Below, piece after piece: positions 14,003 through 41,352 of a stretch of DNA of 64,000 nt. The position numbers and the translations under genes were made by a program. The notes beneath the pieces are model-generated. The model saw nothing but the letters and a program-made list of their open reading frames with translations, was not told where the DNA came from and searched no databases. The stretch is from a virus (taxonomy: Duplodnaviria > Caudoviricetes): the IMG/VR virus record IMGVR_UViG_3300022602_000027. The stretch is one strand, 5' to 3'. The stretch's first letter is position 1, and each line of letters starts with the position of its first letter.

Positions 14003-15321
14003 TGACATATTCAATTCTTTTAACTAACGGCAACACATTAACTACTGTAGCTAATGGTAGTATCGATCAAACCACTACAGATTTAACGCTGATTGGTCAA
14101 AATACATCGGGATACGGAGTATTCATTAATGATAACTTTGTGCATTTGTTAGAAAATTTTGCAAATACTAGTCAACCAAATCATCCTGTTAAAGGGCAGT
14201 TATGGTATGATACAAGTCAAAATTTATTGCAAGTGTACAACGGTTCGACTTTTACTCCAACCGGTAATACTATTGTATCAGGCACAGTGCCTAGCGGGCT
14301 AACTACCGGCGGATTATGGATTAATAGTACAACAAGCCAGTTATATTTTAATGATGGAACTGAAACAACTCTTGCAGGCCCTTTGTATACAAAACAACAA
14401 GGACAAAGCGGATTTGTTGTGAGTACAATATTAGATACGTTAAGTGTTAGCCATACTATTGTATCTTTATATGTTGCTAATACCTTAATGGGCATCTTTG
14501 CCAAGGAGTCTTTTACTCCTGCAACTGCAATTACTGGGTTTACAGATACTATAACTTTAACAGCAAGCCAAGTAGGAACAACTTTAACTGTTACATCTTG
14601 TTCAACTAACACACTTGCGGTGGGACAAACAATAACCGGAGTTGGAATACTTCCAAATACAGTTATCACTAGTTTAGTAGTTAACGGTGTAACAGCAAAC
14701 GGCGGAGTTGGACAATACCTAGTAAGTACTAATGCTACACTTGCATCAACATCGATGACTGCAATTTACGGTACTTTACAAATTGGATTTAATGTAAGTA
14801 CATACGGCGGTATTACTTTTAACGTTCCCGTAAGTCAAGCAAGTTATTTGTTAAGCCCAACAGACGGATCATTAAAAAATGCTAATAGTTTCTTGTCAAC
14901 TACATCAGCATCGTCGACTAGCGGAACACTTTCAATACAAAATTCAACTCCATTACGTCTTGGTACTGCAGGTTACACGACAGTAAACACTAGTTATGGT
15001 ACTTTTGAGATATTATCTAATATTGCTGGTCAAGATTTTCAAATTAGTTCATCAAATTCAAATCCAACTACACAAAGTTTGTATATAAATGGTACAACAT
15101 TATTTGTTGGAGTTGGCGGATATAGTTCATCTAACTTACCAAAGACAACATTAGATGTAAACGGAACATTTAGAATAGCGACAACTAAAACACCAGCAAG
15201 CAGTACAGCCGCTGGCTCTACTGGGCAGTTTGCTTGGGACACTAATTACCTATATATTTGCGTATCGGGCGGAACAACAGGTAATGCTACATGGAAGCGA
15301 GTAGCGTTAGGAACCTTCTAA
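14002..15321 (+). CDS. Fibre/baseplate-associated protein, paralogue 2
   Basis: Shared N-terminal GQNTSGYG..NFVHLLENFAN..P..GQLWYD domain; C-terminal PASSTAAGSTGQFAWDTNYLYIC...WKRVAL cap motif. Confidence 0.7.
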   Translation: MTYSILLTNGNTLTTVANGSIDQTTTDLTLIGQNTSGYGVFINDNFVHLLENFANTSQPNHPVKGQLWYDTSQNLLQVYNGSTFTPTGNTIVSGTVPSGLTTGGLWINSTTSQLYFNDGTETTLAGPLYTKQQGQSGFVVSTILDTLSVSHTIVSLYVANTLMGIFAKESFTPATAITGFTDTITLTASQVGTTLTVTSCSTNTLAVGQTITGVGILPNTVITSLVVNGVTANGGVGQYLVSTNATLASTSMTAIYGTLQIGFNVSTYGGITFNVPVSQASYLLSPTDGSLKNANSFLSTTSASSTSGTLSIQNSTPLRLGTAGYTTVNTSYGTFEILSNIAGQDFQISSSNSNPTTQSLYINGTTLFVGVGGYSSSNLPKTTLDVNGTFRIATTKTPASSTAAGSTGQFAWDTNYLYICVSGGTTGNATWKRVALGTF

Positions 15322-15334
15322 CAGCTCAAACTAT

Positions 15335-15342
15335 GATAAATA
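15335..15342 (+). promoter_or_regulatory. Late promoter GATAAATA
   Basis: Motif 27 nt upstream of the 15369 start, with AAGGA SD in between. Confidence 0.7.
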
Positions 15343-15368
15343 CACTGAAATAAGGACGAGCGACAACC

Positions 15369-16868
15369 ATGTCATACACAATTAACCATTATAACGGTAC
15401 ATTACTAACCACAGTTTCTGACGGAACAGTAGATACATCCACAGATTTAACTCTGATTGGTAAAAATTACGCCGGTTATGGGCAAGCACAGAACGACAAC
15501 TTTGTATGGTTGTTAGAGAATTTTGCAAATACAAGTAGCCCTCCAAACCCACTTGCAGGACAACTTTGGTATGACAGCGGCAATAAAAAATTAAAATTCT
15601 GGGACGGCACTAATTTCCGTAACACCGGAGGCGCTGAAATTGGTTCTTCAGCTCCAACAGGACTAACACAGGGTGATTTCTGGTTTAATACACAAAGTAA
15701 TCAGTTGTATGCATGGACAGGTAGCACATTTACTCTAATTGGCCCACAAGAAGTTACTGGTGCAGGCACTACACAAATGCAATCAGTTAGTGTTCTTGAC
15801 ACTAGTAATGTTAGCCATGCTATTATTCAAGGTATTGTTAACGGTCAAACAGTATTTACGATTGCAGGAAGTGATGCTCCATTCCAGTTAAATGGCACAA
15901 CTAACCCAATCGTTGGTTTTGATTACATTCAACAAGGCGTTACTTTACAATATACACAGCAAGCAAGTAATGGACAAACATCTGGAAGCCAACGTTTCTG
16001 GGGAACTGCTACTAACTCCGATAGATTAAACGGACATACTATTAGCGATTTCGTTCTAAACACAGGAACACCGCAATTTAGTTCATTAGTTAACTTTGCA
16101 GACGTTGGTTTTACAGTTGGTAGTCCAATTTCTAAACTAGCAATTTATAATTATAATCAAACAACACCAACAATTCAAAACATTAACGGTTCACAAATTT
16201 CATTTGAAACGTTAGTTTCTGGATCAACAAAAAATCCTTTAATTATTAACGGTAATGATGTTACACCGGGACAAAGTGGAACAAGTAATTTAGGAACAAG
16301 TTTGTTACAATGGGCCGCAGTTTATGCTAGTTATCACTATGGAACAGCACAACAAGCAGATGCGCTTAACGTAAATAACGTTTATGTAACAGCTAGTACA
16401 AGTGCAGTAGCTGGAACTATTGCCGCTAGAGATAGCAGTGCTAATATCTATGCTAATGTATTCAATGGTACTGCTACAGCGGCACAATACGCTGACTTAG
16501 CAGAAAAATATCTTCCTGATCCATCACGTACATACGATGTAGGTACAGTTATGGCAGTAGGTGGCCCTGCTGAAGTACGCGGAGCATCATATGGAGATAA
16601 AGCTATCGGTGTAATTAGCCAAAATCCAGCTTTTATGATGAATAAAGATTTAGTAGGCGGAGTTTATGTTGCTCTAAAAGGTCGTGTGCCAGTTAAAGTA
16701 TTTGGCGGATGCTCTAAGGGCGATATGCTAGCACCATACGGTGATGGTTTAGCCGCAAGTATTCCTGGATATTTTGGTGGCGATAATACTAGCAACATCT
16801 GTTTTGCAGTGGCTCTAGAAGATTGTGCAGACGGAAATATCACTCTTGTTGAATGCGTAATCTTATAA
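15369..16868 (+). CDS. Fibre protein, paralogue 3, with C-terminal peptidase G2-like/intramolecular chaperone domain
   Basis: Shared N-terminal domain. The C-terminal AQYADLAEKY...GTV...GG..E...GVIS.NPAF.MN...VALKGRVPVKV...KGD.L pattern is typical of autocleaving fibre chaperones. Confidence 0.7.
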   Translation: MSYTINHYNGTLLTTVSDGTVDTSTDLTLIGKNYAGYGQAQNDNFVWLLENFANTSSPPNPLAGQLWYDSGNKKLKFWDGTNFRNTGGAEIGSSAPTGLTQGDFWFNTQSNQLYAWTGSTFTLIGPQEVTGAGTTQMQSVSVLDTSNVSHAIIQGIVNGQTVFTIAGSDAPFQLNGTTNPIVGFDYIQQGVTLQYTQQASNGQTSGSQRFWGTATNSDRLNGHTISDFVLNTGTPQFSSLVNFADVGFTVGSPISKLAIYNYNQTTPTIQNINGSQISFETLVSGSTKNPLIINGNDVTPGQSGTSNLGTSLLQWAAVYASYHYGTAQQADALNVNNVYVTASTSAVAGTIAARDSSANIYANVFNGTATAAQYADLAEKYLPDPSRTYDVGTVMAVGGPAEVRGASYGDKAIGVISQNPAFMMNKDLVGGVYVALKGRVPVKVFGGCSKGDMLAPYGDGLAASIPGYFGGDNTSNICFAVALEDCADGNITLVECVIL

Positions 16869-19087: not shown

Positions 19088-19438
19088 ATGGACGAAAGAA
19101 TTGAAAAAGCATTTGCTGTAGCTAATTATGCGGCCACATTGTCAAATCAACGCAGAGTGATATCGGAAGAGTATAAACAAAAATTAGTTTACTACACTAA
19201 CGGATCTACATTTAAAGTTTCCCCTGAGTTAATTGCATTTATTAAAACAGTTATAGAGTTAGGACATATTTCAGATGTTCCATTTTTAGATGCAAATGAT
19301 TTTCCAGTGGTAATTCCTAATGTACAGGAATTTTTAGATAACATAGTTTCAGTTTACTTCGAAGCTCTAAATGAGTACACAGTAAAATATTCAGAAATTA
19401 AAACAAAACGAAAAATTGCAGATATAGTTGAACTATGA
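19088..19438 (+). CDS. Hypothetical protein, first gene of the GT operon
   Basis: 116 aa with GGAG SD; ATGA overlap with the next gene. Confidence 0.7.
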   Translation: MDERIEKAFAVANYAATLSNQRRVISEEYKQKLVYYTNGSTFKVSPELIAFIKTVIELGHISDVPFLDANDFPVVIPNVQEFLDNIVSVYFEALNEYTVKYSEIKTKRKIADIVEL

Positions 19439-20283
19439 CAACAGGCGCACTTATATTTGCTCAAAATAATCATTCAGTTGATTATGTCCAGCTAGCAGTA
19501 TTTGCGGCTAGCCGTGCTAAACAATATTTAGATATTCCGGTATCTTTAGTAACAGATAATAAAAAATGGTTAGAGGAAAACTATCCCAACCATGAGTTTG
19601 ATTCAGTTATTGAAGTACAGCCATCTGGATTAGTTCAAAGCAAAATGTTCCATGATGGCTCATTATCTTCAAAATTTACCGAATGGAAAAATTGGACACG
19701 TAGCCAAGTTTACGATTTAACACCTTACGATCGCACACTAGTTTTAGATAGCGATTATGTTATTAACTCTCCATTGTTAAAAACAGCATTGGATAACGAT
19801 CACGATTTCCAAATATATCAAAGTAGTTTTGATTTAGCCTTAGATAGAGACACAACTGATTTTAAAAGAATCAATAGATATAGTGTTCCTTTTTATTGGG
19901 CTACAGTTTTTATATTCAATAAAAATGCTATAATGGATAGTTTTTTTACTCTAGTAGAATATATTAAACAAAACTGGATTTATTTTAAAACGCTCTATAA
20001 CATTACTGCATTTACATATAGAAATGATTTTGCTTTTAGTATTGCTATACACATTATGAATGGCAAAACAAATGGCGATTTTGCAACAGCACTTCCTGGA
20101 AAAATGATATACATCAGCGATAAAGATTTTTTAGTTAATGCAGTTGACAACAAAATGAATTTTCTAGTACAGAAACAAAAATTTTACGGTGAATATACTG
20201 CTGTAAAAACTACAGGATTAGACGTACACGTTATGAATAAATTTAGTCTAAGCCGATATATTACAGGAGGTTCAGGTGTCTAA
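19435..20283 (+). CDS. GT-A fold glycosyltransferase (GT8-like)
   Basis: YDLTPYDRTLVLDSDY carries the DxD motif; later YWATVFIF and FRND-like YRNDFAFSIA. Confidence 0.65.
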   Translation: MTTGALIFAQNNHSVDYVQLAVFAASRAKQYLDIPVSLVTDNKKWLEENYPNHEFDSVIEVQPSGLVQSKMFHDGSLSSKFTEWKNWTRSQVYDLTPYDRTLVLDSDYVINSPLLKTALDNDHDFQIYQSSFDLALDRDTTDFKRINRYSVPFYWATVFIFNKNAIMDSFFTLVEYIKQNWIYFKTLYNITAFTYRNDFAFSIAIHIMNGKTNGDFATALPGKMIYISDKDFLVNAVDNKMNFLVQKQKFYGEYTAVKTTGLDVHVMNKFSLSRYITGGSGV

Positions 20284-21118
20284 AGGATTTCTTTTATTTG
20301 CACAAAATACTGACAGGGTAGATTATATTACACAAGCCTATGCTCTTGCGTTAAGTATTAAATCTAGTCAGCCTACAATTAATTCAGTTTCACTAGTAAC
20401 TAATAGTGATGTACCTAAAAAATATAGAGAAGTTTTTGATCAAATCATTCCTATTCCTTGGTTTGAAGAAACAGAAAATAGTCCTCTAGCCGCAGAGCAT
20501 CGTTGGAAATTATATCACGTAACTCCGTATGACGAAACAATAGTATTAGATACAGATATGTTATTGTTAGAAGATATAAGTGAATGGTGGCATTATTGTA
20601 GAAATTATGATGTTAAATTTTGTAATCAAATTAAAAATCATAAATTAGAAACAGTTGTTGATACAATACACAGAAAAGCATTTAAGGCAAACAATTTAAC
20701 TAATCCATATTATGCATTGCATTATTTTAAAAAGAATGATGCCGCAAAATCTTTTTATAAAGTATTAGAATTTGTATGTAATAATTGGGAATGGTGTTGG
20801 ACAAAGTTTGCACCCGACTATTATCAAAATTGGTTAAGCATGGATTTAGCTACAGCTATTGCAGTTGAAATTTCAGGCGAATATAATTATGTAATTGATA
20901 ATTGTAGCCCTTTAGAATTTATACACATGAAAATTCCATTACAAGATTGGCCTGATAGTGCTACTAGATGGCAAGATACTATTCCTTGGATTTTAAACAG
21001 TCGAGGCGAGTTAATTGTATCAAATATTAAACAAACTAAATTATTTCATTATGTGGAAAAAGATTTTGTTACTAAAACTATACTTGATCAGCTAGAGGAA
21101 TTACATAATGACAAATAA
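20276..21118 (+). CDS. GT-A fold glycosyltransferase (GT8-like), paralogue
   Basis: YHVTPYDETIVLDTDM carries the DxD motif; FIHMK near the C-terminus. Confidence 0.65.
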   Translation: MSKGFLLFAQNTDRVDYITQAYALALSIKSSQPTINSVSLVTNSDVPKKYREVFDQIIPIPWFEETENSPLAAEHRWKLYHVTPYDETIVLDTDMLLLEDISEWWHYCRNYDVKFCNQIKNHKLETVVDTIHRKAFKANNLTNPYYALHYFKKNDAAKSFYKVLEFVCNNWEWCWTKFAPDYYQNWLSMDLATAIAVEISGEYNYVIDNCSPLEFIHMKIPLQDWPDSATRWQDTIPWILNSRGELIVSNIKQTKLFHYVEKDFVTKTILDQLEELHNDK

Positions 21119-21704
21119 GTATATGATTTCGCCAGAGCAGAAGTATTGGGCTCACTACAGTAAACAAACTGGAGTGATTCGTTCAGTTTCAAACGAACCT
21201 ACTGTACTTGATGAAGGTAGTCTTGAAATCAAATATGAAGATTATATACCATTTATTACTGGAGAAAAAAAGCTACACGAGCATATGATTGGGTATGCTA
21301 AAAATGTAGATGGTACCACTCATAAAACTATTATACAAATAGCAGAACAACTTTACGGATTTAGAAATAACATTTTTGAATGGATAAACAAGACTCCTAC
21401 AAAAGACACTGAACTAACAGTTACTTGGAATAAAACTGATAAAACATGGAATTTTAAATTAAGTAAAAAAGCTAAAATTAGAATTGAAAATGATGTGTTA
21501 ACTAAAACTATCTTTTTTATAATGCTTAAAGATGATTTTGATTTTTTAATTAGAAGTATAGTTATAGATGTAAAAGAACTAGTAGAAAATCAAAGTATTA
21601 CAATACCATTTGCTAGTAATGTAGAAACAAAAATTGAAAAAATATCAGTGTCTAGTCAAATAATATTTCAAAGTTACGGATTAAAAATAAATGACAAAAA
21701 TTAA
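21108..21704 (+). CDS. Hypothetical protein in the GT operon
   Basis: 198-aa ORF overlapping both neighbours. Confidence 0.65.
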   Translation: MTNKYMISPEQKYWAHYSKQTGVIRSVSNEPTVLDEGSLEIKYEDYIPFITGEKKLHEHMIGYAKNVDGTTHKTIIQIAEQLYGFRNNIFEWINKTPTKDTELTVTWNKTDKTWNFKLSKKAKIRIENDVLTKTIFFIMLKDDFDFLIRSIVIDVKELVENQSITIPFASNVETKIEKISVSSQIIFQSYGLKINDKN

Positions 21705-22587
21705 AATAATTGAACAAGACATCATCTTTCTCAGCTACGATGAACCAAATGCTGAAAAAAATTATGCAGACTTACTTACTAAAGTGCCTTGGGCAAAACG
21801 TGTTCATGGAGTTAAAGGTAGTGATGCCGCACACAAGGCCTGTGCGGCATTAAGTGATACTGAGTATTTTGTTACAGTGGATGCAGACAATATTGTAGAT
21901 CCTAAATTTTTAGAAGTTGAAATTGACTTAGATGCATTAGGACTAACAAGTGAAAATGTATTTTCATGGTGTGGTAAAATTCATGTTAATGGACTTATGT
22001 ATGGCAATGGTGGACTAAAACTGTGGACTAAAGAGTTTGTTAACAATATGCGTACACATGAAAATGCCGCAATTGATGATGCAAAAGGCCGTGTAGAATT
22101 TTGTTTCGACGACAAATATTATCAATTTAATGATAGCTATTCAGAAAGTTTTACAAATGCTACGCCTTTCCAAGCGTGGCGTGCCGGATTCCGTGAAGGT
22201 GTTAAGATGAGTTTAAATCAAGGTATGAAAACTAATGATTTAAAAAAGGTATGGTGGCAAAACTATCATAGATTATTAGTTTGGTGTACAGTAGGTGCAG
22301 ATGTTGAAAACGGTATTTGGAGTGTATTAGGTGCTAGAGAAGGCTGTTACATGACAATGTTTACTGACTGGGATTATGCAAACGTTCGCGATTTTGAATG
22401 GTTAACTACTCATTGGGAAACAACACACGAACAAGCAGAGCCAGAAAAAATAACAGAATATATAAATTTTTTAGGCAAATATTTAATGAAGCATAGTGAA
22501 TTAGAAATTGCCAATTTAGATCCAGCTGGTAGTAAGTTTTTTAAAACCGTCTACTTAAATACACCTCGAGTAATTAGAAGACGATAA
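21691..22587 (+). CDS. GT-A fold glycosyltransferase (GT2-like)
   Basis: IIFLSYDEPNA...RVHGVKGSDAAH.AC...YFVTVDAD (DxD); YGNGGLKLW; AWRAGFREG. Confidence 0.65.
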   Translation: MTKIKIIEQDIIFLSYDEPNAEKNYADLLTKVPWAKRVHGVKGSDAAHKACAALSDTEYFVTVDADNIVDPKFLEVEIDLDALGLTSENVFSWCGKIHVNGLMYGNGGLKLWTKEFVNNMRTHENAAIDDAKGRVEFCFDDKYYQFNDSYSESFTNATPFQAWRAGFREGVKMSLNQGMKTNDLKKVWWQNYHRLLVWCTVGADVENGIWSVLGAREGCYMTMFTDWDYANVRDFEWLTTHWETTHEQAEPEKITEYINFLGKYLMKHSELEIANLDPAGSKFFKTVYLNTPRVIRRR

Positions 22588-31639: not shown

Positions 31640-32494
31640 TTAGGTACCCCATTCATTTTTAAATAAAGGCACTTGTAGTCTATCACTATAGCGTAAGCCT
31701 GCCTTCATAGCTAGTTCTGCTACACGACGATTGTTTAATGTATAAACACTTTCTACTCCGCCAACTGGCATCAAATATACTGCGCCAGTAAAACCAGCAA
31801 GTCGATATAAATCCATTACTTCTAATGCTTCATATGCATCGTCTTCTGTGGCTACAACAAATTTAAGATATGTATAACCAACATCTTGATATTGCAAAAG
31901 CACATCTGGTTTGATAGCATCTTCACGTTTTTCACCACTACAACTCAATTTAGCACTTACACTAAATGTTACATCTCTAGTATAATGCTCATGCCCAGTC
32001 TGCCATTGTAACAAGTAACGTTGAAAATCATCAGTTAATGCTTGAGTGCCATTAGTTTCAAATGTAATTTCTTTTAAGTTATACATGTTAGGATGATCCA
32101 ATAGATCTGGATAAGCACGTTGCCAGCCTAACAATGGCTCACCGCCTGTGATAACCAAATGCTCATCTTGCCATTGTTTGTATGGAAGGATCTCCATAAT
32201 GCGATCTGCAATAGCATCGCTTGTGAGCATTGGACTAAGTTCTTTAAAACTAGGATGCCAACTAGCATAACTATCACAACCTGTACTAACCAAAGGAAGT
32301 TCTTCATATTTGTTATATAGATGTACTACTGTAGCAATGTCTTCGGCTTCCGCACTTAGTTCGCCACGTGGCATACCAAAACCTGCACATTTAAAATTAC
32401 AACCAAATGTACGCAAGAAAACAGACGGTACACCCATGTAACGTCCTTCGCCTTGCACACTATAAAATAACTCGGCAATCTTAATTTTACTCAT
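31640..32494 (-). CDS. queE: 7-carboxy-7-deazaguanine synthase (radical SAM)
   Basis: IAELFYSVQGEGRYMGVPSVFLRTFGCNFKC...GCDS, LVITGGEPLL, TFETNGT, SAKLS, RLQ.PLF.NEWG. Confidence 0.92.
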   Translation of the reverse strand: MSKIKIAELFYSVQGEGRYMGVPSVFLRTFGCNFKCAGFGMPRGELSAEAEDIATVVHLYNKYEELPLVSTGCDSYASWHPSFKELSPMLTSDAIADRIMEILPYKQWQDEHLVITGGEPLLGWQRAYPDLLDHPNMYNLKEITFETNGTQALTDDFQRYLLQWQTGHEHYTRDVTFSVSAKLSCSGEKREDAIKPDVLLQYQDVGYTYLKFVVATEDDAYEALEVMDLYRLAGFTGAVYLMPVGGVESVYTLNNRRVAELAMKAGLRYSDRLQVPLFKNEWGT

Positions 32495-32723
32495 CTTCGT
32501 CTTTCTCTAAAAATTGACTTACTTGATCTTCTGCATTCTGCAATGAAGATGCATAAACACTAAATGTAGCAACACCTTTACTTGCCTTTACATCAAACGG
32601 AACAGTACCGTTTGGCAACCAGTTTGGTTCTACTTCTCTTTTAATTTCAAACCATTGCATTTCTGTATTTTTCATACGGTAAATTAATTCATCTGTTAAT
32701 TGTTTTGCTGTATTCATTCGCAA
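32487..32723 (-). CDS. Hypothetical protein
   Basis: About 78 aa, overlapping its neighbours. Confidence 0.55.
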   Translation of the reverse strand: MRMNTAKQLTDELIYRMKNTEMQWFEIKREVEPNWLPNGTVPFDVKASKGVATFSVYASSLQNAEDQVSQFLEKDEDE

Positions 32724-33103
32724 TCGCCTTGTTCTGCTAATTTTGATACTGCTGATTTTTCTTTGCGGTCTTTTCTAAAATTATCTACGTCTTCTATAGC
32801 ACTGAGCAATGTTTGAGCATAGTTAAATGCTTGCTGTCGACGCATAACTAGAGTAGACTCTGTATCGACGTAGCCTTTTGTTAACAACGACCAAATAGCA
32901 TGCCACCGATCCTTGTAAAACCAATTGCTTTTTACAGTTGTATAGATAGTAACACTAACTTCATGATCGTCAGCTTCTACCCATACATGATGATCGTGAT
33001 CAGAAGCACCGCACTCGCAAGTAACTCGGTAGGCTTTTGAGTCTCCCCAGTCGTTTGTTTGCATAATGCCTTCGGCTGGTACTTGTATTTTTAGATCAGT
33101 CAT
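32714..33103 (-). CDS. Hypothetical protein (C.C...H.H possible metal site)
   Basis: VTCECGASDHDHHV; 129 aa. Confidence 0.65.
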   Translation of the reverse strand: MTDLKIQVPAEGIMQTNDWGDSKAYRVTCECGASDHDHHVWVEADDHEVSVTIYTTVKSNWFYKDRWHAIWSLLTKGYVDTESTLVMRRQQAFNYAQTLLSAIEDVDNFRKDRKEKSAVSKLAEQGDCE

Positions 33104-33858
33104 TTTGAAGCATACTCCTGTTGCATTTTGATATTGTCAAAGAATTCTTTCTTTGTACCTGGATCATCTTTAAATGCACCTTTTAATACTGTAGTCTGCG
33201 TTAAACTACTCTTAGCCATAATGCCTCGATTCTCACAGCAACCATGCGTAGCTTGAATGTATACACCTAAGTCTGTAGCGCCTGTGGTTTTTTCTATTTC
33301 CCTAGCAATATCGTTACACAACTCTTCCTGGAGAGTGCCGCGACGAGCACACCACTGAGCAATACGAGTGTACTTAGACAAACCAATAAGTTTTTGTGCG
33401 GCGATGATACCAATGTAAGCGACACCAGTAACGGGCTGATGATGATGACTGCACATAGAGCGCAACTCACTACGTACCACCAACATACCTTCGTATCTGT
33501 CTTCGCCATCGTTTGGAAATGCTGTTGCGTCTGGTGCTGGGTCATATCTGCCACTCATTACTTCATTAAAATACATCTTAGCAAGGCGACGAGCTGTGCC
33601 TTTGCTATTAGGATCGTTTTCACGATCAATAAGCAAACGGTCAAGCACTAGTTCAAATGCTTCTGTTGCTTCATCAATTAGTTTATCTTTAAATTCTTCT
33701 GTAACGTATTCGCTAATATTATCGCCAGCCCAAAAGCGTTTGCCTTCTCGTTTCATTTTAAATCGAAGATGATCGCCTAGATATGCTTCTTCGTAACCGC
33801 CGTCGCCTGCCATAGCATCTAACCCTGTCTCAAATTTATATGTTTGTGATTCTGTCAT
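33100..33858 (-). CDS. folE: GTP cyclohydrolase I
   Basis: TARRLAKMY, SMCSHHHQP, IGLSKYTRIAQWCARRGTLQEEL, ATHGCCENRG. Confidence 0.96.
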   Translation of the reverse strand: MTESQTYKFETGLDAMAGDGGYEEAYLGDHLRFKMKREGKRFWAGDNISEYVTEEFKDKLIDEATEAFELVLDRLLIDRENDPNSKGTARRLAKMYFNEVMSGRYDPAPDATAFPNDGEDRYEGMLVVRSELRSMCSHHHQPVTGVAYIGIIAAQKLIGLSKYTRIAQWCARRGTLQEELCNDIAREIEKTTGATDLGVYIQATHGCCENRGIMAKSSLTQTTVLKGAFKDDPGTKKEFFDNIKMQQEYASK

Positions 33859-34465: not shown

Positions 34466-34659
34466 TATTTCTTTCCAAAACGTAAACCAGTAATGCTACC
34501 TAACAATAAGAAATAAGCAAGCCATGTTTCTAATGTATATGGAATATGTAGCACTGGAAACAGTGTATTTAAACTCCATATGCCTACAATAGGCCCAAAT
34601 ACAATAGCAATTACAATGAATGTAATACCAAAAATTAATTTAATTAATGCTGATGTCAT
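34465..34659 (-). CDS. Small membrane protein (64 aa)
   Basis: Two hydrophobic segments; ATGA overlap with the PRTase stop. Confidence 0.6.
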   Translation of the reverse strand: MTSALIKLIFGITFIVIAIVFGPIVGIWSLNTLFPVLHIPYTLETWLAYFLLLGSITGLRFGKK

Positions 34660-35150
34660 AACCAAAAATCCTCCCACGGATAAACTAACCAGCAGTCTTC
34701 CTCTGCTTTGTTTACGGTCCAAACATAATAGTCTGGATCTTTAAATTCACTTGAAAAATTGTGTGTCAATACGGCAAAGCGAACAGTGTCTCCCCAGATG
34801 CTTGACCAAGCAGGATGTCCAGGTAATGCGCTTGATTCCCAGTCTTTCTTAATCCAGTTAACAGTAGATCCTTGATCATTGATATCATCAACAACTAGTA
34901 TCTTTTTACCTTCAAAAGCATCTTCTGCCATGTTTAAATTACTAACCTTATCTCCACCGTCACGTAAACTAATATCTAAACTGTTCATTTTAATACCAGT
35001 ATATTGACTTAAGAGATTAGCAGGAACAAGCCCGCCTCTAGTAATGCCTACAATATAATCAGGTTTCCAATTGTGTGCTGACATTTGGCGAGCAATATCT
35101 AATACTGCTCCTTCAACTTGTTGCCAGGTATAATAAACTTTTTTTATCAT
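34656..35150 (-). CDS. Type I phosphoribosyltransferase (purine PRTase/Gpt-like)
   Basis: IVGITRGGLVPA, PRPP-binding loop ILVVDDINDQGST, C-terminal WLVYPWE. Confidence 0.9.
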   Translation of the reverse strand: MIKKVYYTWQQVEGAVLDIARQMSAHNWKPDYIVGITRGGLVPANLLSQYTGIKMNSLDISLRDGGDKVSNLNMAEDAFEGKKILVVDDINDQGSTVNWIKKDWESSALPGHPAWSSIWGDTVRFAVLTHNFSSEFKDPDYYVWTVNKAEEDCWLVYPWEDFWL

Positions 35151-35362: not shown

Positions 35363-35589
35363 GCTGTTAATCCGTATGCAAGTGTTTGACATTCTTCTTT
35401 AGTCATAAAGAAATTGTATGTTTGACTTTCAACAACTTCTCCGTCTTTCAAAGACTCTTGAACCATGTCAATACTAAACAAACCTTTAGGACTTAGTACT
35501 TCGTGTTTGTTAAGAGTTAATCGAAATCCTTCGTGCTCTTTGATAACCATTGTTTTAAATGTTCCTCTAACTGATTCATGTAGTTCCAT
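35359..35589 (-). CDS. Hypothetical protein
   Basis: SD GGAG 6 nt before ATG 35589. Confidence 0.6.
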   Translation of the reverse strand: MELHESVRGTFKTMVIKEHEGFRLTLNKHEVLSPKGLFSIDMVQESLKDGEVVESQTYNFFMTKEECQTLAYGLTA

Positions 35590-35938
35590 CTTCATCTCCT
35601 TTTATTGCTTCAAATGTTCTGTATTTGCCTAAAGCGTTAATGTACGCATCGTACAATTCTTTCAGCTTTGGATGTTTAGCTTCTAGTTTAACATCTCGTT
35701 CGGGAATTTGCAATACCTTTTCGATTGTACTTAACCGTTCTTCCAAATCACGTCCATTAATAACCATATTACCTTTAACTTCTAGAGTAGGATTATCACC
35801 TTGATTGACAACCATTACTGCATCATAAGGACTAGCTACTGATGTTGCTGTAGTCCACGAAGTACCGTTTGATCCTGCTGTTAGATATGATCCTGCTGGT
35901 ATAGTTGGTAATGTTACGTTAGTTGGAAAGTAAGCCAT
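35576..35938 (-). CDS. Hypothetical protein (120 aa)
   Basis: Start moved to MAYFPTNV; contains INGRDLEERL..IEK.L. Confidence 0.55.
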   Translation of the reverse strand: MAYFPTNVTLPTIPAGSYLTAGSNGTSWTTATSVASPYDAVMVVNQGDNPTLEVKGNMVINGRDLEERLSTIEKVLQIPERDVKLEAKHPKLKELYDAYINALGKYRTFEAIKGDEDGTT

Positions 35939-36407
35939 TCTTTCTATCTGATAAGTATTTTTCAAAGTGGATCCATTTATTTTTAACAATAAATCCCCAC
36001 TCACGTTGACGTTTTCCAACAAAGAACAATGTCCATGGAGTAACGCCTTCTGCCAATTCAATACGATGGAAAGTATGTGTGTTTCCAAAACGGAAACTAC
36101 CTGGACCACGCCAGTATCTTACTTCGCATGTTTTGATTCCTTCTTCGTTAAACTGAGCAACCCACTCGTAGTAGCCGCCAGCAAGAATAATAGTAAAGTA
36201 GTTCCATGGGTGATCATGCACATCATCTGGATCCGATTTTAAGAACTTGTGTAAGAATACATTGTATGGAAATGTTACACGTTCCTTAAACAAGACATAG
36301 TAACGTTCTAAATATGGTTCGTTTTCAGTACGATCCATAATAACACGTTTACGGTCATGGCGTTCAAGCCAATTAAGGACGTGGTCTTTGATCTTCTGGA
36401 GTATCAT
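35919..36407 (-). CDS. Cupin-fold protein
   Basis: VHDHPWNYFTIILAGGYYE...FHRI (H-x-H...E...H metal set), TLFF.GKRQREWGF. Confidence 0.7.
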   Translation of the reverse strand: MILQKIKDHVLNWLERHDRKRVIMDRTENEPYLERYYVLFKERVTFPYNVFLHKFLKSDPDDVHDHPWNYFTIILAGGYYEWVAQFNEEGIKTCEVRYWRGPGSFRFGNTHTFHRIELAEGVTPWTLFFVGKRQREWGFIVKNKWIHFEKYLSDRKNGLLSN

Positions 36408-36774
36408 AGTGGTCTTTCACTAGTTTGTAAGTTGTTTTAAATTTTTCAAAGGCTATCTTTAAACCTGGATATTCTTCACACATTTTTTGTATTCGATTAA
36501 AATCTGGCATACAGTTCACAAACTCTTCCTGCATCTGCCATTCGTAACCGGTACCAGCGCCTCCGATAGTAAATCCTGAACTAGAACTACTAGTTCCGCC
36601 ACTACTAATAGTAATAGTATTAGCACTAATCCCGCCAATGCCAGCACCGGTATAGTAAAAACTTGTTCCTGTAGTGTTACCGATAGTAATATTTCCTGAA
36701 ACTGCTCCGGTGTTTAGTGTAACAGTATCATTGGATGTTATCAAGTAATCCTCTAGCTGAGAAGAAGTTGTCAT
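36373..36774 (-). CDS. Hypothetical protein with a T/S/G low-complexity N-terminus
   Basis: 133-aa ORF. Confidence 0.6.
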   Translation of the reverse strand: MTTSSQLEDYLITSNDTVTLNTGAVSGNITIGNTTGTSFYYTGAGIGGISANTITISSGGTSSSSSGFTIGGAGTGYEWQMQEEFVNCMPDFNRIQKMCEEYPGLKIAFEKFKTTYKLVKDHYDTPEDQRPRP

Positions 36775-37819
36775 GTAAGTCCTTTGCTTGTTTGCGTATG
36801 GAAGGTATTCTTGTAGAATAATTATCCATGTGTTCTATTATTTTACGGCATAAGTCTGGTCTGTAAACTGTGTATGTGTTAAAATCTTCAGTCCATTTAC
36901 TGTCGTATTTGAACATGTCGTAATACATTTCTGTGTAACTTAATCTATCTGGAACCATAGGAATAGCGTCAACTACCGCACCTTCATAGCAACTAATGCC
37001 TAAAGTTTCTTGTAAGTTAGCACTAAACACCATCTTGGCTTCGCCTAACAAGTTATGATATTCATTTTTTGTTAGTTGTTGATCCTGACACACTACAAAT
37101 TCATACTGCGGTAAGTGTGTAGCTAAGTCTCTAAAAATCTCAACTTGCTTCTCAGGTGCAATGCGATGAGGAAAAAGAATTAAATCACGCTTGGGCATAT
37201 TCTTATACATGGTTAATGTATCATTCATATACTCCATTGGCCAGCCAGTTCGAACATATTTTCCATCTTCTAGCATATCTGCTTTGTCCTCTTCTTCCCA
37301 AGGATTTTCAACCATGCCATCATTTAATAAATTATGATGGAACATATCAATATGGAAAGTAGTGGCAAAGTAATTATGATCAAATGCCGCAAAGAATGAT
37401 TTTTCTGCATGACGTACCCAAGGCTTGTTGCCAACAAGGCGCCCTAAGAAGTCTTGAGGATCATAACTACCGGCATGCCATAGTCCATGTGTGACTACTG
37501 GAATGTTTAGTAGTTCACTCATATATTTTAAGTTTATTATGCCAGGATGCCAAGCATCAGTGAAGATGAAATGATCGCCAGGCTGAACTGATCCGGAGCA
37601 AAATAGACGCCCCATTTGTTCCACTTGTCGAGACTTATAGATATTGGTGCCGCCAAAATTAAGAAAAGCACCAGGAGTAGTGGCTGAAGGAATATCCTCA
37701 GGGCCAGATATAATTTGAACATTGTGTCCTGCCTTTCGTAAGAGATTAGGTACATGGCGTTTCCATTCGCCAGTGTACCTTGTCTCAACTGCTTCTAAAT
37801 CAATTAGAAATACGGTCAT
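36728..37819 (-). CDS. GT-B fold glycosyltransferase (GT4-like)
   Basis: FPHRIAPEKQ, then E-x7-E (QETLGISCYE), VPDRLSY.EM; N-terminal FTDAWHPG and HAGSYD. Confidence 0.7.
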   Translation of the reverse strand: MTVFLIDLEAVETRYTGEWKRHVPNLLRKAGHNVQIISGPEDIPSATTPGAFLNFGGTNIYKSRQVEQMGRLFCSGSVQPGDHFIFTDAWHPGIINLKYMSELLNIPVVTHGLWHAGSYDPQDFLGRLVGNKPWVRHAEKSFFAAFDHNYFATTFHIDMFHHNLLNDGMVENPWEEEDKADMLEDGKYVRTGWPMEYMNDTLTMYKNMPKRDLILFPHRIAPEKQVEIFRDLATHLPQYEFVVCQDQQLTKNEYHNLLGEAKMVFSANLQETLGISCYEGAVVDAIPMVPDRLSYTEMYYDMFKYDSKWTEDFNTYTVYRPDLCRKIIEHMDNYSTRIPSIRKQAKDLHDNFFSARGLLDNIQ

Positions 37820-38057
37820 TGTTGTATCTCGGATTCTTACCTAGATAAGGCTTACGTTCACCAGTGAACGGTTTCTTAGGACGACGGCTCTTTTCAAAGT
37901 TGCGCCAGACCCAGCTTTCTCTGTTATAGAGATGACTCTCATCGAATGGATGTAATTCCAAACGACACCAGTTATGAAAAGCCTCAAGATCGTCAAAGAT
38001 TTTAACGATATCAGGACGGGTTGAAAAATAACTGATTTCTTTGTAGTTCTTAGCCAT
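37800..38057 (-). CDS. Hypothetical protein
   Basis: 85 aa with a basic C-terminus. Confidence 0.6.
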   Translation of the reverse strand: MAKNYKEISYFSTRPDIVKIFDDLEAFHNWCRLELHPFDESHLYNRESWVWRNFEKSRRPKKPFTGERKPYLGKNPRYNNDRISN

Positions 38058-38069
38058 TATAGCCTCTTG

Positions 38070-38459
38070 TTAGTATTTGATAAATGAACCATTTTCTCCA
38101 TCTTCGGAGACCTCAATCCAAACCTCACGGTCAGGATACTTTTGTGAAATCATGTCATATAAATCATCTGACATCATTTCGCAACTTTTATAATCTAGTT
38201 TTAGTATACTATCTTTGTATAGATTTTCCACCCAGCGTTTGAACTGGATGAATTCGACATCACGGTCGTTGTGGGTAACTGAAAGCCAAACGCGAAAATG
38301 GAATATATGACGATGAGGAGTAGCCAAAAACGATACATCATATTCATCTCCTGTTGCTAAGTTTGGATCTGTTGCGGCCGCTGGATAAGCGTGAATGCCT
38401 TCTTTCTGGAAAGTAACCCAGATCATTTTGTTTGGTCGAATGTCTTGTTTAATAATCAT
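38070..38459 (-). CDS. queD: QueD-like T-fold protein (6-carboxytetrahydropterin synthase candidate)
   Basis: GIH.Y...PHRHIFHFRV (His triad), EF..FKR, SCEMMS.DL (T-fold S.E motif), EVSEDGENG. Divergent from canonical QueD. Confidence 0.6.
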   Translation of the reverse strand: MIIKQDIRPNKMIWVTFQKEGIHAYPAAATDPNLATGDEYDVSFLATPHRHIFHFRVWLSVTHNDRDVEFIQFKRWVENLYKDSILKLDYKSCEMMSDDLYDMISQKYPDREVWIEVSEDGENGSFIKY

Positions 38460-38872
38460 ATTGTTTCCCACATATTTGGATCTAAATCTACTGCGTTGTC
38501 ATATCTTGTTAGATGGTCATTGTTTTGAATTGTAACATGTGCATGACAATTACGACATAATACATCTAAATTTTCTTCATCGCTATTATGACGATTACCG
38601 TCAATATGATGAACATCTAGTTGTTCTGGACCAATAATATGTGCTGTACACACAAATCCATATTTTGTAGTTGTATTAGAACAGCCATTGTTCATTTTCC
38701 AGTTATCAACTTCAATCTTTTGACCTCCTCTATGACATTCACAAAACATTTTCCATTTTGCGCCAACTGTAGTGTTGACTTTTTTATATGTTTTATGAAA
38801 TCCTACCCTGTTATTACAACCAGGTAATGCACATTTCGGAGCATGATTGTTTATTACTGCACGTTTCCTCAT
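38456..38872 (-). CDS. HNH endonuclease (free-standing, homing-type)
   Basis: LDVHHIDGNRHNSDEENLDVLCRNCH, plus N-terminal CxxxxC and CECH Zn ligands. Confidence 0.88.
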   Translation of the reverse strand: MRKRAVINNHAPKCALPGCNNRVGFHKTYKKVNTTVGAKWKMFCECHRGGQKIEVDNWKMNNGCSNTTTKYGFVCTAHIIGPEQLDVHHIDGNRHNSDEENLDVLCRNCHAHVTIQNNDHLTRYDNAVDLDPNMWETI

Positions 38873-39396
38873 TTTATGATCTCATCATTTGTATATTCAT
38901 CCCAATTGGTAAAATATTTCCTTTGAGTAATTGCACCAATCGGTACACACCAAACGCCGGGATTTGTGGCGTCGAAATCTTTATCATCAATCTTAATTGT
39001 AGCATTATACCCAAGTTGTCCTATATAAGGCAATTTTACACTAATTTGTGGAATAAATCTACGATGTTCGGTTAAACCGCTTTCTAATACACCTTCATGT
39101 TCACTAACATCAAAGTCTAGAGTACACCAATAACCTGCATCTAAACAACCTTGTATCATGTCTTCCCATGGGCGCCAACCTGGTATATCATTGACGCCTT
39201 TAGTGCCAAAACTTTGATTAGCACCGAAATAGATATGTGTACAATCATTATTTTTAGCAAGGCTAATAATAACTTGTTCGTCGTGTGTACCTACTACGAA
39301 CAAAGTTTTCATACCGTATGCAGGAGTGCGTTCAATTTCAGTACCGACAAAGAATGTTACATCTTCACTAGTACCTGTAGTATATTCACGTTTCAT
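38869..39396 (-). CDS. Conserved hypothetical protein linked to the TGT-like gene
   Basis: 175 aa; FFVGTEIE.TPAYG..TLFV, HIYFGANQSF, TNPGVWC. Confidence 0.7.
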   Translation of the reverse strand: MKREYTTGTSEDVTFFVGTEIERTPAYGMKTLFVVGTHDEQVIISLAKNNDCTHIYFGANQSFGTKGVNDIPGWRPWEDMIQGCLDAGYWCTLDFDVSEHEGVLESGLTEHRRFIPQISVKLPYIGQLGYNATIKIDDKDFDATNPGVWCVPIGAITQRKYFTNWDEYTNDEIIK

Positions 39397-39646
39397 TTGT
39401 AAATTTCTTTCCTTCTTCCCAATATTTGATCATACGTTGTACATCTTCCATACGTTCTTGTATAACGTGTGGGGCCTCACGTTCTAATTCTTTTAAATTA
39501 TGATAGCTAGGATAATGACGTAAACACCAACGAGCTTGTTCACGTATTTCTTTTGGAATACGTGGAGTCTTTTGAGGATTCATCAGATCCTGCAAAAACT
39601 CCTCAGTTCGCTGTATGCTTCTAAAGCGTTCGTCGGGTAATGTCAT
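39386..39646 (-). CDS. Hypothetical protein
   Basis: MTLPDER...TPRIPK.IR..AR..LRHYP; ATGA-coupled to the TGT-like gene. Confidence 0.65.
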   Translation of the reverse strand: MTLPDERFRSIQRTEEFLQDLMNPQKTPRIPKEIREQARWCLRHYPSYHNLKELEREAPHVIQERMEDVQRMIKYWEEGKKFTNET

Positions 39647-41352
39647 AGTTCAAATAACGATTCGTTGAGTACAGGTTTAACTGGTTCTTTGACTACTTTT
39701 TCAATAGTTAAATTACCTTCAAATTCAATATGCACATCTGCCATTGCACTAGCATTGGTAATTCTATCACCAGTATTGCCTCTAGTGCCAATGATACGAT
39801 CAAAATAGTCACCATAGAATTCAATTAAGTCTAAAGCATCTTGTCTATTGTCTATGCTAAAAATTAAATCAACGATGTCTTTAAACTTATTTGGACCTGG
39901 ACTATAATCTCTATGGGTTTTAGTTTCAGCAGTAGTAGCATTTAGCATTGCAGGAATGACACCAGCATCGCTTTGACGATTGGCTTCTTGCACAGCATTA
40001 CAATGCATCCAAACATTATGTCCCATCATAATAGCATAAGTGAAACTATCCCAACTAGTACGTCCTTCTTTGCCTACTTTATTTAGATCGCCGGGTGCGT
40101 AGATGCAAATGTCTTTCATTAATACTTGATCCATAATTGGACTAGATTCAAATCTATCAAAAATATTGTCTTGTACTACTGCGTCTTTAAATAGCCTTGT
40201 ATCGTTAGCATACTTCTTGTCATCGGCAGATGCTTGCATACGATAGACCCATTTGTCTGCATGTGGAGTTTCTGTAGCCATATAAATTTGTCCATTAGCA
40301 GTTGCTAAGAATGGACTTGCACAGTCAAAACTAATTGTAAAGTCTGGATTGTGATATTTGCGAACAGCACGTTGAATGTCAGTTAGTAGTACAGCCCATT
40401 CTAGTTTGCTAGTACCTAAGAAGTGCATCCAATCTTGGTGCCCTTGTTCTAACAATCCATCAAATCGCAAGTGTACTAGACGCTTCAACACTAAATGAAC
40501 ATCGCACATATTCTGTCCACCCATTGCCCAACCATTAAATGGTTTGTCATATTTGTTAGGATCGCAGAAATCTTTCATTTCATTATACCAATCATCTGCA
40601 TCTGCGTGATTTTCACCTTGTAGAACGTTTAAGAACTTACAAGCACCTGTGCGATGTTTGATCCAATATTCGTTGTTGTATTTGGTTGCTGATACTGCTT
40701 CAGCATATGAGCTGATACCTGTAGCTTTAATACCTGCTGGACTGCGACATACCCATGCTGGAATATCAAGTACCATACCATAATCCATATAAGCATCCAT
40801 CCAACGCAACACTTGATCACGTTTCTTTTGTGCGGCGTCTAATTGTGCTTGATAAAGTTTAGGATGATCTACTTTGGTATATTTTTGATTACCATTCTTA
40901 TCAGTTTTAGGATGTCCTGTTGGATGAAATTGCGGAACAAGCTCAACACCTAGGGCATTTACTTCTGCCCACTTAGCGGCAACTTCTGGCCCATTAGGAT
41001 CCCGCCACTCGCCTTCCCATACGCCTTTACCAATCTGGAATCCACCTGAATCGCCTAGTACCCAACTAGTTGAGCGATCTCGATTACGGAACATGTCTTC
41101 AGACTCGTCTGGTTTACTCATGTCTAGATTAGCATGTCCAGCTGAGTAAAGACAATGATCATAATAGAACATACCTTTCTCTGGTTCGAGATAGTTAAGA
41201 CTTTCTACACTACCATTAAAACTTGCAGGTAGTCGAGCAGGATCTACGTAATTACTGTAACGCTGTCTACCAATAAAAGTAGAATAGAATCCACTAGTTG
41301 CTGGCAAAAAGTATGCGTAATCGTTTTGTGTTGCAGTTAAGTTCTTATTCAA
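39643..41352 (-). CDS. dpdA: TGT-family transglycosylase, probable DNA 7-deazaguanine inserting enzyme
   Basis: LGDSGGFQ, M.LDIP, LNVLQG, GWAMGG, MHFLG, ISFDCASP are TGT barrel motifs. Co-occurs with folE, queD and queE. TTG start. Confidence 0.75.
   Translation of the reverse strand: MNKNLTATQNDYAYFLPATSGFYSTFIGRQRYSNYVDPARLPASFNGSVESLNYLEPEKGMFYYDHCLYSAGHANLDMSKPDESEDMFRNRDRSTSWVLGDSGGFQIGKGVWEGEWRDPNGPEVAAKWAEVNALGVELVPQFHPTGHPKTDKNGNQKYTKVDHPKLYQAQLDAAQKKRDQVLRWMDAYMDYGMVLDIPAWVCRSPAGIKATGISSYAEAVSATKYNNEYWIKHRTGACKFLNVLQGENHADADDWYNEMKDFCDPNKYDKPFNGWAMGGQNMCDVHLVLKRLVHLRFDGLLEQGHQDWMHFLGTSKLEWAVLLTDIQRAVRKYHNPDFTISFDCASPFLATANGQIYMATETPHADKWVYRMQASADDKKYANDTRLFKDAVVQDNIFDRFESSPIMDQVLMKDICIYAPGDLNKVGKEGRTSWDSFTYAIMMGHNVWMHCNAVQEANRQSDAGVIPAMLNATTAETKTHRDYSPGPNKFKDIVDLIFSIDNRQDALDLIEFYGDYFDRIIGTRGNTGDRITNASAMADVHIEFEGNLTIEKVVKEPVKPVLNESLFEL

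Follow-up and report, generated by a model that had tools for sequence, protein, structure and literature searches.

The subject of this analysis is a glycosyltransferase (GT) gene carried by a 64,000-nucleotide stretch of DNA (the window) from the IMG/VR virus record IMGVR_UViG_3300022602_000027. The source is a giant uncultured phage; a 16-kb segment compared by megablast with the phages in GenBank gave no match. An earlier note, made from the letters alone, had placed in the window a lone GT-B enzyme amid deazaguanine genes, and had considered that it might act on a 7-substituted deazaguanine in DNA. The open reading frame (ORF) exists with exactly the limits then proposed. It is on the minus strand, starts with an ATG at 37819, stops at 36728 and encodes 363 residues. 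Its first 20 nt also form the end of an 85-aa ORF, within a co-oriented and tightly spaced run of genes. The deazaguanine context is real as well, since genes for a GTP cyclohydrolase I (FolE), a QueE-type enzyme and a large DpdA-like guanine transglycosylase are found in the same region (Table 1).

The GT gene is real and is under strong purifying selection. The ratio of non-synonymous to synonymous substitution rates (dN/dS) is 0.09-0.12 against relatives having 84-93% amino acid identity, and 0.04-0.16 across all computable pairs. About 8,000 candidate homologues were scored in metagenomes, with identities of 83-97% among the 120 matches listed, and the homologues correspond to 1,097 cluster representatives at 50% identity. 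In a protein atlas, the GT was placed in virus-dominated clusters, one of them named glycosyltransferase family 1; PF00534 is carried by 29% of the members in one of the atlas clusters.

The single GT sequence matched nothing in Pfam (E <=0.01), in the PHROGs or among PDB sequences, so that the GT-B label was a guess needing a test. An alignment of 44 diverse members was used to build an AlphaFold2 model and to derive the conservation figures. In GT-B enzymes, the active site is in the cleft between a pair of Rossmann-like domains. The model (pLDDT 94.3, pTM 0.91) can confidently be assigned to this fold and to its retaining, GT4-like type, so the earlier note was right on this point. Compared with the PDB using Foldseek, the model retrieved GT-B glycosyltransferases only (392 matches at E <=0.001, best E 2e-9). 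Using VIA-align, full-length matches were obtained with sucrose-phosphate synthase (6kih, Z 26.0, 317 residues, root mean square deviation (rmsd) 3.2 Å), BshA (3mbo, Z 24.9) and MshA (3c4q, Z 24.5). Further matches were GlgM, PglA, glycogen synthase and OtsA, and a tetrahydrobiopterin glucosyltransferase was recovered at Z 21. The matching structures are of the retaining GT4/GT5 type, the acceptors of most of the leading ones being small molecules or sugar phosphates.

BshA, MshA, sucrose-phosphate synthase, GlgM and PglA, which are the best full-length matches (Z 22-26, rmsd ~3 Å), have in common with the GT an EX7E motif and a diphosphate-binding Arg/Lys pair. However, they are only 8-15% identical to the GT, which has its own acceptor-domain residues and another genomic context. 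The EX7E glutamates of the GT are E271, kept in at least 90% of the 44 members, and E279, which is invariant; they are 8 residues apart in 'LQETLGISCYEG'. The Arg/Lys pair corresponds to R219 and K224 in 'FPHRIAPEKQ' and is also kept in at least 90% of the members. In a profile search, the C-terminal region containing these donor-site residues aligns to the PDB glycosyltransferase 8xsg (E 6e-4). In addition, the family member from cyanophage BUCT-ZZ01 just passes the Pfam thresholds for Glycos_transf_1 (26.5 vs 26.4 bits) and Glyco_trans_1_4 (28.3 vs 27). The conserved set of the N-terminal acceptor domain (E9, R14, Y15, W19, Q65, D88, W90, H115, D120, E139) is rich in aromatic and acidic residues.

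The glucosyltransferases AGT (GT72) and BGT (GT63) of phage T4 are also GT-B enzymes. They transfer a sugar onto a modified base of DNA after replication, thereby protecting it against nucleases. The special likeness to these enzymes suggested in the earlier note was not found. Neither AGT nor BGT is among the best 50 PDB rows of either the Foldseek or the VIA-align list, and the closest structures are the GT4 enzymes named above, in particular sucrose-phosphate synthase, BshA, MshA, GlgM and OtsA. A cyanophage 'DNA alpha-GT' occurs at rank 29 in the viral fold list BFVD (E 6e-6, TM-score 0.51); this is generic GT-B similarity. AGT and BGT act on 5-hydroxymethylcytosine. The GT family is acidic and resembles GT4 enzymes that act on small molecules.

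The gene neighbourhood of the family is informative. In GenBank, phage homologues of the GT occur in Sinorhizobium phage Phosso, the PA5oct group, Acidovorax phage ACP17, Xanthomonas phages BUDD and X1 and Burkholderia phage BCSR5. Cyanophage BUCT-ZZ01 has the GT as judged by profile comparison (hhalign 99.7%, E 3e-25). In all of these phages, the GT gene adjoins that of DpdL or is close to it, and the gene order is shuffled from one phage to another: DpdL-GT in Phosso, DpdA-GT-DpdL in ACP17 and PA5oct, GT-DpdA-DpdL-QueE in BUDD and DpdA-DpdL-GT in BUCT-ZZ01. Identity to the window proteins is 36-81% for DpdL, as compared with 28-48% for the GT. About 594 GT loci were confirmed in IMG/VR, where independent lineages (L086-L093; L numbers designate the loci compared) keep the pairing with DpdL. 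For counting, the GT sequences were clustered at 60% identity with a flank of at least 3 kb required, which gave 18 clusters; a GT counted as linked when DpdL was no more than 5 kb away, when a large DpdA was no more than 10 kb away, or both. DpdL and/or a large DpdA of the DSGG type accompany the GT in 15 of the 18 clusters, whereas DpdA3 accompanies it in none. The linked clusters include PA5oct, ACP17, Phosso, BUDD, BUCT-ZZ01 and alphaproteobacterial islands, that is, unrelated phages as well as bacterial islands. The three unlinked clusters hold the remotest members of the family (22-27% identity); even so, FolE and QueE occur close to the GT in one of the three. The earlier note had held that occurrence in phages lacking dpdA would count against its proposal; this objection did not materialise, as the core family (~30% identity or more) was never encountered without a large DpdA or DpdL in its vicinity. 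The link of the GT to 7-deazaguanine genes is far beyond chance, and it is very probable that the GT is a functional part of the deazaguanine module.

Among the distant relatives, those of the type found in Xanthomonas phage PhiXhv-12 (L103, 4669-7903; 27% identity, without DpdL) follow genes for GlmS and a BshB/LmbE-type deacetylase. This locus of Xanthomonas and Erwinia jumbo phages looks like a pathway in which N-acetylglucosamine (GlcNAc) is transferred and then deacetylated.

The GT family is not restricted to phages. Forty-one GT loci were found by scanning prokaryotic assemblies, about eight of which are phage contigs binned into metagenome-assembled genomes. More than 20 are on alphaproteobacterial chromosomes (Pelagibacterium, Devosia, Ochrobactrum, Methylobacterium, Magnetospirillum, Sulfitobacter, Shimia). 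There, the GT adjoins a large DpdA and often DpdL, and polymerase or replication genes are absent. In Magnetospirillum, the order is a protein with a CoiA-like nuclease domain, GT, DpdL, DpdA and QueD, with an integrase and a HEPN protein nearby. Sulfitobacter has the minimal unit, GT and DpdA alone, with overlapping genes and without FolE, QueD or QueE nearby. In Pelagibacterium-type loci, DpdL is absent and a protein with 4-6 transmembrane segments, weakly matching YhhQ/Vut_1, is encoded between DpdA and GT. In L114-L119 (Pelagibacterium, Devosia, Ochrobactrum, Rhizobiales), this unit of large DpdA, 178-aa membrane protein (Vut_1/YhhQ, E 2e-4) and GT spans ~8050-11050. Because DpdL and the genes for 7-carboxy-7-deazaguanine (CDG) are missing from it, the base may be imported or derived from host queuosine precursors. 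The island of Magnetospirillum aberrantis (L126, 4244-17488) also holds a two-component system; it may be a defence island of the restriction-modification kind that uses the modification made by the GT module.

The partner that defines these modules is the large DpdA-like protein, of 569 aa in the window. It is 33% identical to the protein encoded just upstream of the GT in PA5oct-type phages, and a transitive chain of BLAST matches leads from it to proteins of ~420 aa in ACP17, BUCT and L091. The motif DSGG[FL]Q is common to it and to the ACP17, BUCT and BUDD proteins; the BUDD homologue, whose gene occupies the equivalent place, bears the annotation queuine tRNA-ribosyltransferase. Comparison with tRNA-guanine transglycosylases (TGT) by sequence failed with Pfam, with a PDB profile and with hhalign against the BUDD TGT. 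With the structural model, the Foldseek list consists nearly entirely of TGT enzymes and the DNA preQ0 insertase DpdA (TGT 1q65, E 8.6e-4; DpdA 7ui4, E 9.6e-4; both with probability 1.00). In the wide VIA search, ArcTGT, QTRT2 and TGT come first (Z 12.2-13.0), and generic TIM barrels are next at Z ~11. From the motif, the transitive BLAST links and the modelled fold, we read this protein as a divergent DpdA.

The gene next to the 85-aa ORF had been described in the earlier note as queD-like and located two genes from the GT. The position holds, with one ORF between. The identity is that of DpdL, a paralogue of QueD proposed to decarboxylate CDG and recognised by the signature LxxxHRHxF (Cui et al., 2023; PMC10516641). 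The window protein is 54% identical to the protein encoded beside the GT in ACP17, which carries LGSPHRHLF. H53 and H55 are invariant among 12 DpdL sequences, and profile matches of DpdL to PTPS/QueD are weak. No genuine QueD was found in the window, whether in Pfam searches of the ORFs examined or in a tblastn comparison using five QueD queries; its gene may be located outside the 64 kb. QueC and QueF were likewise not found in the window by tblastn.

The association was also examined in the reverse direction. DpdL is present in 28 GenBank records. In a profile search of whole records, for which ACP17 (E 2e-113) and BUCT-ZZ01 (E 9e-36) served as positive controls, the GT was absent from phiST, RHph_I1_18, Ahp1, Bakedbeans, D479 and MA9V-3, all bearing DpdL. 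With these six phages, the idea that the GT is required wherever DpdL occurs was rejected. The phages phiST, MA9V-3, D479 and Ahp1 have a small DpdA3 (259-290 aa, without DSGG) together with a gene resembling nucleoside monophosphate kinases, and phiST also has MazG. The kinase and the pyrophosphatase hint that, with DpdA3 modules, genomes fully substituted with 2'-deoxy-7-deazaguanosine (dDG) might be produced from nucleotides modified ahead of replication and not by exchange in DNA. Conversely, the idea that the GT accompanies each large DpdA was rejected. In Vibrio phage 2.275.O, a large DpdA with DSGGFQ occurs together with queC and queF, and DpdL and GT are both missing; the 370-aa gene that follows its DpdA was tried as a family member and rejected (hhalign probability 0.08%). 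The GT thus marks one architecture, in which a large DpdA is combined with a QueC-less or salvage supply of the base.

The comparison with phiST (FolE, QueD, QueE, DpdL, DpdA3) is instructive. Both systems are of the QueC-less kind and have FolE, a QueE-type enzyme, a DpdL with LxxxHRHxF and a protein of the TGT superfamily presumed to insert the base. However, phiST has a 259-aa DpdA3 with kinase-like and MazG-like genes and no member of the GT family, whereas the window has the 569-aa DSGGFQ-type DpdA, the GT and a type I phosphoribosyltransferase (PRTase). The product in phiST is plain dDG, which replaces all G in its DNA (PMC10516641).

The DpdA3 modules are located at 7430-9592 in phiST (L094), 6464-8612 in Chryseobacterium phage MA9V-3 (L100), 6989-9085 in D479 (L099) and 8004-9900 in Ahp1 (L096). 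In two phages, DpdL forms the C-terminal domain of a fusion: Vibrio phage Bakedbeans (L097, 6212-7363, 383 aa) and MA9V-3 (6464-7345, 293 aa). The N-terminal domains of these fusions have no Pfam match and no BLAST similarity to other module proteins.

Genes for nucleotide sugars are interleaved with the module in some lineages. A GDP-mannose 4,6-dehydratase gene (E 6e-136) directly follows the GT in L090 and L091. Moreover, L091 has a ManC-type nucleotidyltransferase with a mannose-6-phosphate isomerase cupin between DpdL and GT. Second GT1-family genes are found in L087 and BUCT-ZZ01, and an epimerase fragment in PAC2. These accessory genes differ among lineages, which suggests that the sugar differs too. 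The window has its own candidates for sugar tailoring, a cupin and a short dehydrogenase-like protein, both clade-specific. The cupin gene comes right after the GT in L106 and a few hundred bases beyond it in L108, and was recorded in only 1 of the 18 GT clusters; the protein is a possible tailoring enzyme of that clade. Against PDB sequences, the cupin and DpdL gave nothing useful beyond weak PTPS matches. In the 275-aa dehydrogenase-like protein, Pfam matches the N-terminal domain partly and does not report the C-terminal one. A homologue of its gene lies inside the L090 module, and it is near the GT in only 2 of the 18 clusters. A role in tailoring the sugar donor is possible but unproven. 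The supply of a uronic acid donor by this enzyme, as envisaged in the earlier note, is weakened by the short gene, by its rarity beside the GT and by the GDP-mannose genes of other lineages.

Table 1. Deazaguanine module and adjacent genes in the window (positions in the 64,000-nucleotide stretch).
Feature	Position	Strand	Basis
QueE-type radical SAM 7-carboxy-7-deazaguanine synthase	31640..32494	-	NCBIfam QueE models, E 1e-14 to 9e-11
GTP cyclohydrolase I (FolE)	33100..33858	-	Pfam, E 8e-38
Type I phosphoribosyltransferase (PRTase)	34656..35150	-	Pfam Pribosyltran, E 2e-14
Cupin-type protein, PHROG 'cysteine dioxygenase'	35919..36407	-	PHROG 4786, E 1e-35
GT-B (GT4-like) glycosyltransferase, 363 aa	36728..37819	-	ORF call, AlphaFold2 fold, motifs, dN/dS
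85-aa ORF between dpdL and GT	37800..38057	-	ORF list; tblastn homologues in 76/93 loci
DpdL, 133 aa, QueD-like T-fold paralogue	38070..38471	-	LATPHRHIF signature; PHROG 17812
Conserved 175-aa protein, travels with the module	38869..39396	-	ACP17 homologue between folE and dpdA; loci L105-L112
Large divergent DpdA-like guanine transglycosylase (putative), 569 aa, DSGGFQ	39643..41352	-	Motif, transitive BLAST, fold
Short UDP-glucose/GDP-mannose dehydrogenase-family protein, 275 aa	42295..43122	-	Pfam central domain, E 2e-25

Upstream of the GT are the 85-aa ORF, DpdL, the 175-aa protein and the DpdA-like protein, and downstream of it the cupin, the PRTase, FolE and QueE. As for the other neighbours, the QueE matches are all under the NCBIfam curated cut-offs, yet they are consistent; the Pfam Radical_SAM match is weak. 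Homologues of the PRTase recur in the GT-bearing modules of PAC2, BUCT-ZZ01, L091 and L093. The 85-aa ORF has no Pfam or PHROG match, and the 175-aa protein has none in Pfam, the PHROGs or the PDB. Past DpdA are located the clamp gene, the short dehydrogenase-family gene and PolB. Between the 175-aa gene and dpdL, an HNH endonuclease gene (38456-38872, minus strand) has no tblastn homologue in the 93 related loci and looks like a recent insertion of a homing endonuclease into the modification module. The cupin gene is flanked by two small minus-strand ORFs (36373-36774 and ~35576-35940), each with an N-terminal half rich in Gly, Ser and Thr and a helical C-terminal half; an 86-aa ORF of PAC2 resembles the second one (43% over 35 aa). 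A 129-aa protein encoded between folE and queE (32714-33103, minus strand) contains CECGASDHDHH, has a homologue of 54% identity in L090 and is not QueD according to Pfam. Farther away, a giant plus-strand ORF of more than 3,700 aa (1-11121) extends off the start of the window and is followed by genes resembling tail-collar and tail-fibre genes (11789-16868). The 'GT-A operon' with which the earlier note had contrasted the GT was not confirmed, the ORFs at 19435-22587 having no Pfam match at E <=0.001.

Considering these data, the following scheme may be proposed. The GT would be an enzyme dependent on a nucleoside diphosphate sugar and dedicated to the phage and bacterial branch built on the large DSGG[FL]Q-type DpdA. 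FolE, QueD and QueE would produce CDG, which DpdL would convert, presumably to 7-deazaguanine. The large DpdA would then exchange guanine in DNA for 7-deazaguanine. Finally, the deazaguanine would receive a sugar from the GT, whether as the free base prior to insertion or once it is in DNA. The released guanine may be salvaged by the PRTase, which may alternatively channel the base into nucleotides. The likeliest attachment point would be the exocyclic 2-amino group, by comparison with the 7-deazapurine N2-glycosides huimycin and dapiramicin. The sugar would probably depend on the lineage, being derived from GDP-mannose where Gmd and ManC are interleaved. We infer which atom of which acceptor receives which sugar, in what order the steps occur and that the product is present in DNA. 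In view of the acidic surface and of structural neighbours that are small-molecule enzymes, we lean towards glycosylation of the free base. On another hand, the product is tied to DNA by the strictness of the DpdA pairing, which extends to islands devoid of biosynthetic genes. Taken as a whole, the reading of an active GT dedicated to the large-DpdA branch, with a glycosylated 7-deazaguanine as the final DNA base, is slightly favoured over its negation; for the end product considered by itself, the balance is even.

A chemical precedent exists outside phages. In Kutzneria albida, HuiG was assigned to attach GlcNAc, from UDP-GlcNAc, to N2 of the 7-deazapurine of huimycin, and in the dapiramicins the sugar is likewise carried by the exocyclic 2-amino group (PMC7439116; preprint 10.64898/2026.04.15.718813). 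The GTs of the huimycin family are listed under PF13439, a GT-B family (preprint 10.64898/2026.04.15.718813). Like the window GT, HuiG is encoded beside deazaguanine genes, here FolE, QueD and QueE homologues, and it shows that N2-glycosylation of a 7-deazapurine exists. However, HuiG makes a soluble secondary metabolite and belongs to a cluster with QueC and without DpdA, whereas the window GT is tied to a DNA transglycosylase.

Several observations weigh against a glycosylated base in DNA. First, plain 7-deazaguanine has no hydroxyl at C7, so that the acceptor atom is a guess. This objection is answered by the N2 precedent of huimycin and dapiramicin, but a TGT-type pocket, which ordinarily recognises the 2-amino group, would have to accommodate the N2-glycosylated base. 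Second, the GT family is acidic (median isoelectric point 5.7; 5.56 for the window protein, with both halves acidic), which offers no indication of a DNA-binding surface. Its nearest structural neighbours are enzymes of small molecules, and direct action on DNA is thus not indicated. The interpretation given in the earlier note is supported in part: the GT-B enzyme tied to deazaguanine genes stands, while a special likeness to the T4 enzymes is not supported. Third, phiST is fully substituted without a GT, which makes the enzyme dispensable for DpdL chemistry as such. Fourth, the 569-aa protein was modelled with only moderate quality (pLDDT 61), residues 110-340 forming a good core. Fifth, when fused forms of the GT (at least 637 aa) were sought, no GT-DpdA or GT-DpdL fusion turned up, although this is weak evidence. 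Finally, we know of no chemistry for any GT-bearing phage.

Other explanations were considered. It is unlikely, yet worth considering, that the GT glycosylates a soluble intermediate or by-product that never enters DNA, for instance a huimycin-like 7-deazapurine glycoside, a pterin glycoside (cyanobacterial BGluT) or a stored or detoxified base. Such a role would agree with the nearest structures, all small-molecule enzymes and among them the tetrahydrobiopterin glucosyltransferases, with the acidity of the family and with HuiG working on the free base; moreover, pterin synthesis too begins with FolE and a QueD-like enzyme. However, the tightest and most general partner of the GT is a DNA transglycosylase, which a soluble end product would not need, and the unit reduced to GT and large DpdA in Sulfitobacter, with the membrane protein in addition in Pelagibacterium-type loci, has no FolE, QueD or QueE nearby.

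A different target, such as DpdA, the clamp, a virion protein or a host envelope glycan, with linkage through co-regulation or another indirect reason, appears quite unlikely. GT4 enzymes are very versatile, the best sequence-profile match in the PDB (8xsg/8xsh) is an Actinobacillus glucosyltransferase, early regions of phages mix unrelated auxiliary genes, and the distant PhiXhv-12-type relatives sit with GlmS and a BshB-like deacetylase and have no DpdL. Nevertheless, the linkage recurs in at least 15 clusters with shuffled order, with overlapping start and stop codons, and in chromosomal islands that are not phages; nor can chance or co-regulation explain why the GT is fully absent from systems of the DpdA3 type and of the QueC/QueF type.

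It may also be imagined that the GT transfers no sugar and is an accessory partner of the large DpdA needed for insertion, as the ATPase DpdB is an accessory partner of bacterial DpdA. The failure of ACP17 dpdA and dpdL in E. coli without the GT, and a pairing with DpdA stricter than that with any sugar-nucleotide gene, would fit this idea. It is nonetheless improbable, in view of the EX7E glutamates and the Arg/Lys pair kept throughout the family, of the nucleotide-sugar genes interleaved in some lineages and of the strong purifying selection. Lastly, a T4 AGT/BGT-type enzyme glucosylating hydroxymethylated pyrimidines, unrelated to the deazaguanine genes, is very improbable in spite of the GT-B fold and of the cyanophage match at rank 29, since that match is generic (TM-score ~0.5), AGT and BGT are outside the top 50 PDB matches, no hydroxymethylase was seen among the annotated neighbours in a scan of the window that was not exhaustive, thymidylate synthase is represented by ThyX and the linkage is to DpdA and DpdL.

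To our knowledge, the natural glycosylated bases of DNA are so far all pyrimidines: glucosyl- and arabinosyl-hydroxymethylcytosine, base J and glycosylated 5-hydroxycytosine. In the literature, no description was found of a glycosylated deazaguanine in DNA or of an association of DpdA with a glycosyltransferase, and glycosylation is mentioned nowhere in the study of Cui et al. (NAR 2023; PMC10516641). The finding combines two known kinds, deazaguanine modification of DNA and glycosylation of DNA. Tentatively, with a likelihood a little short of even, phages and related bacterial islands would carry a sugar-bearing 7-deazaguanine, possibly modified at N2 in the minor groove, by means of a GT4-type enzyme and a distinct large DpdA. 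If this is true, a sugar-bearing purine would be known from natural DNA for the first time, and it would represent a new class of DNA hypermodification.

Two published observations could then be explained. The DNA of PA5oct resists enzymes having G in their sites (PMC12191111) and thus behaves as G-modified, with the chemistry unassigned. Moreover, dpdL and dpdA of ACP17 alone did not yield dDG in E. coli, and missing enzymes were suggested by the authors (PMC10516641); the GT could account for this failed reconstitution. The GT family is very abundant in lake and marine viromes, with thousands of close homologues, and the cultured phages having it include the therapy-relevant PA5oct group, so that the prediction is directly testable. 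If the prediction is true, it would bear on the evasion of restriction and CRISPR, on nucleases of type IV and of the END type, which sense modified G, and on the sequencing and cloning of such phages. In bacteria, the modification would then maybe represent the modification arm of a restriction-like island, with the CoiA-type nuclease and HEPN proteins as neighbours.

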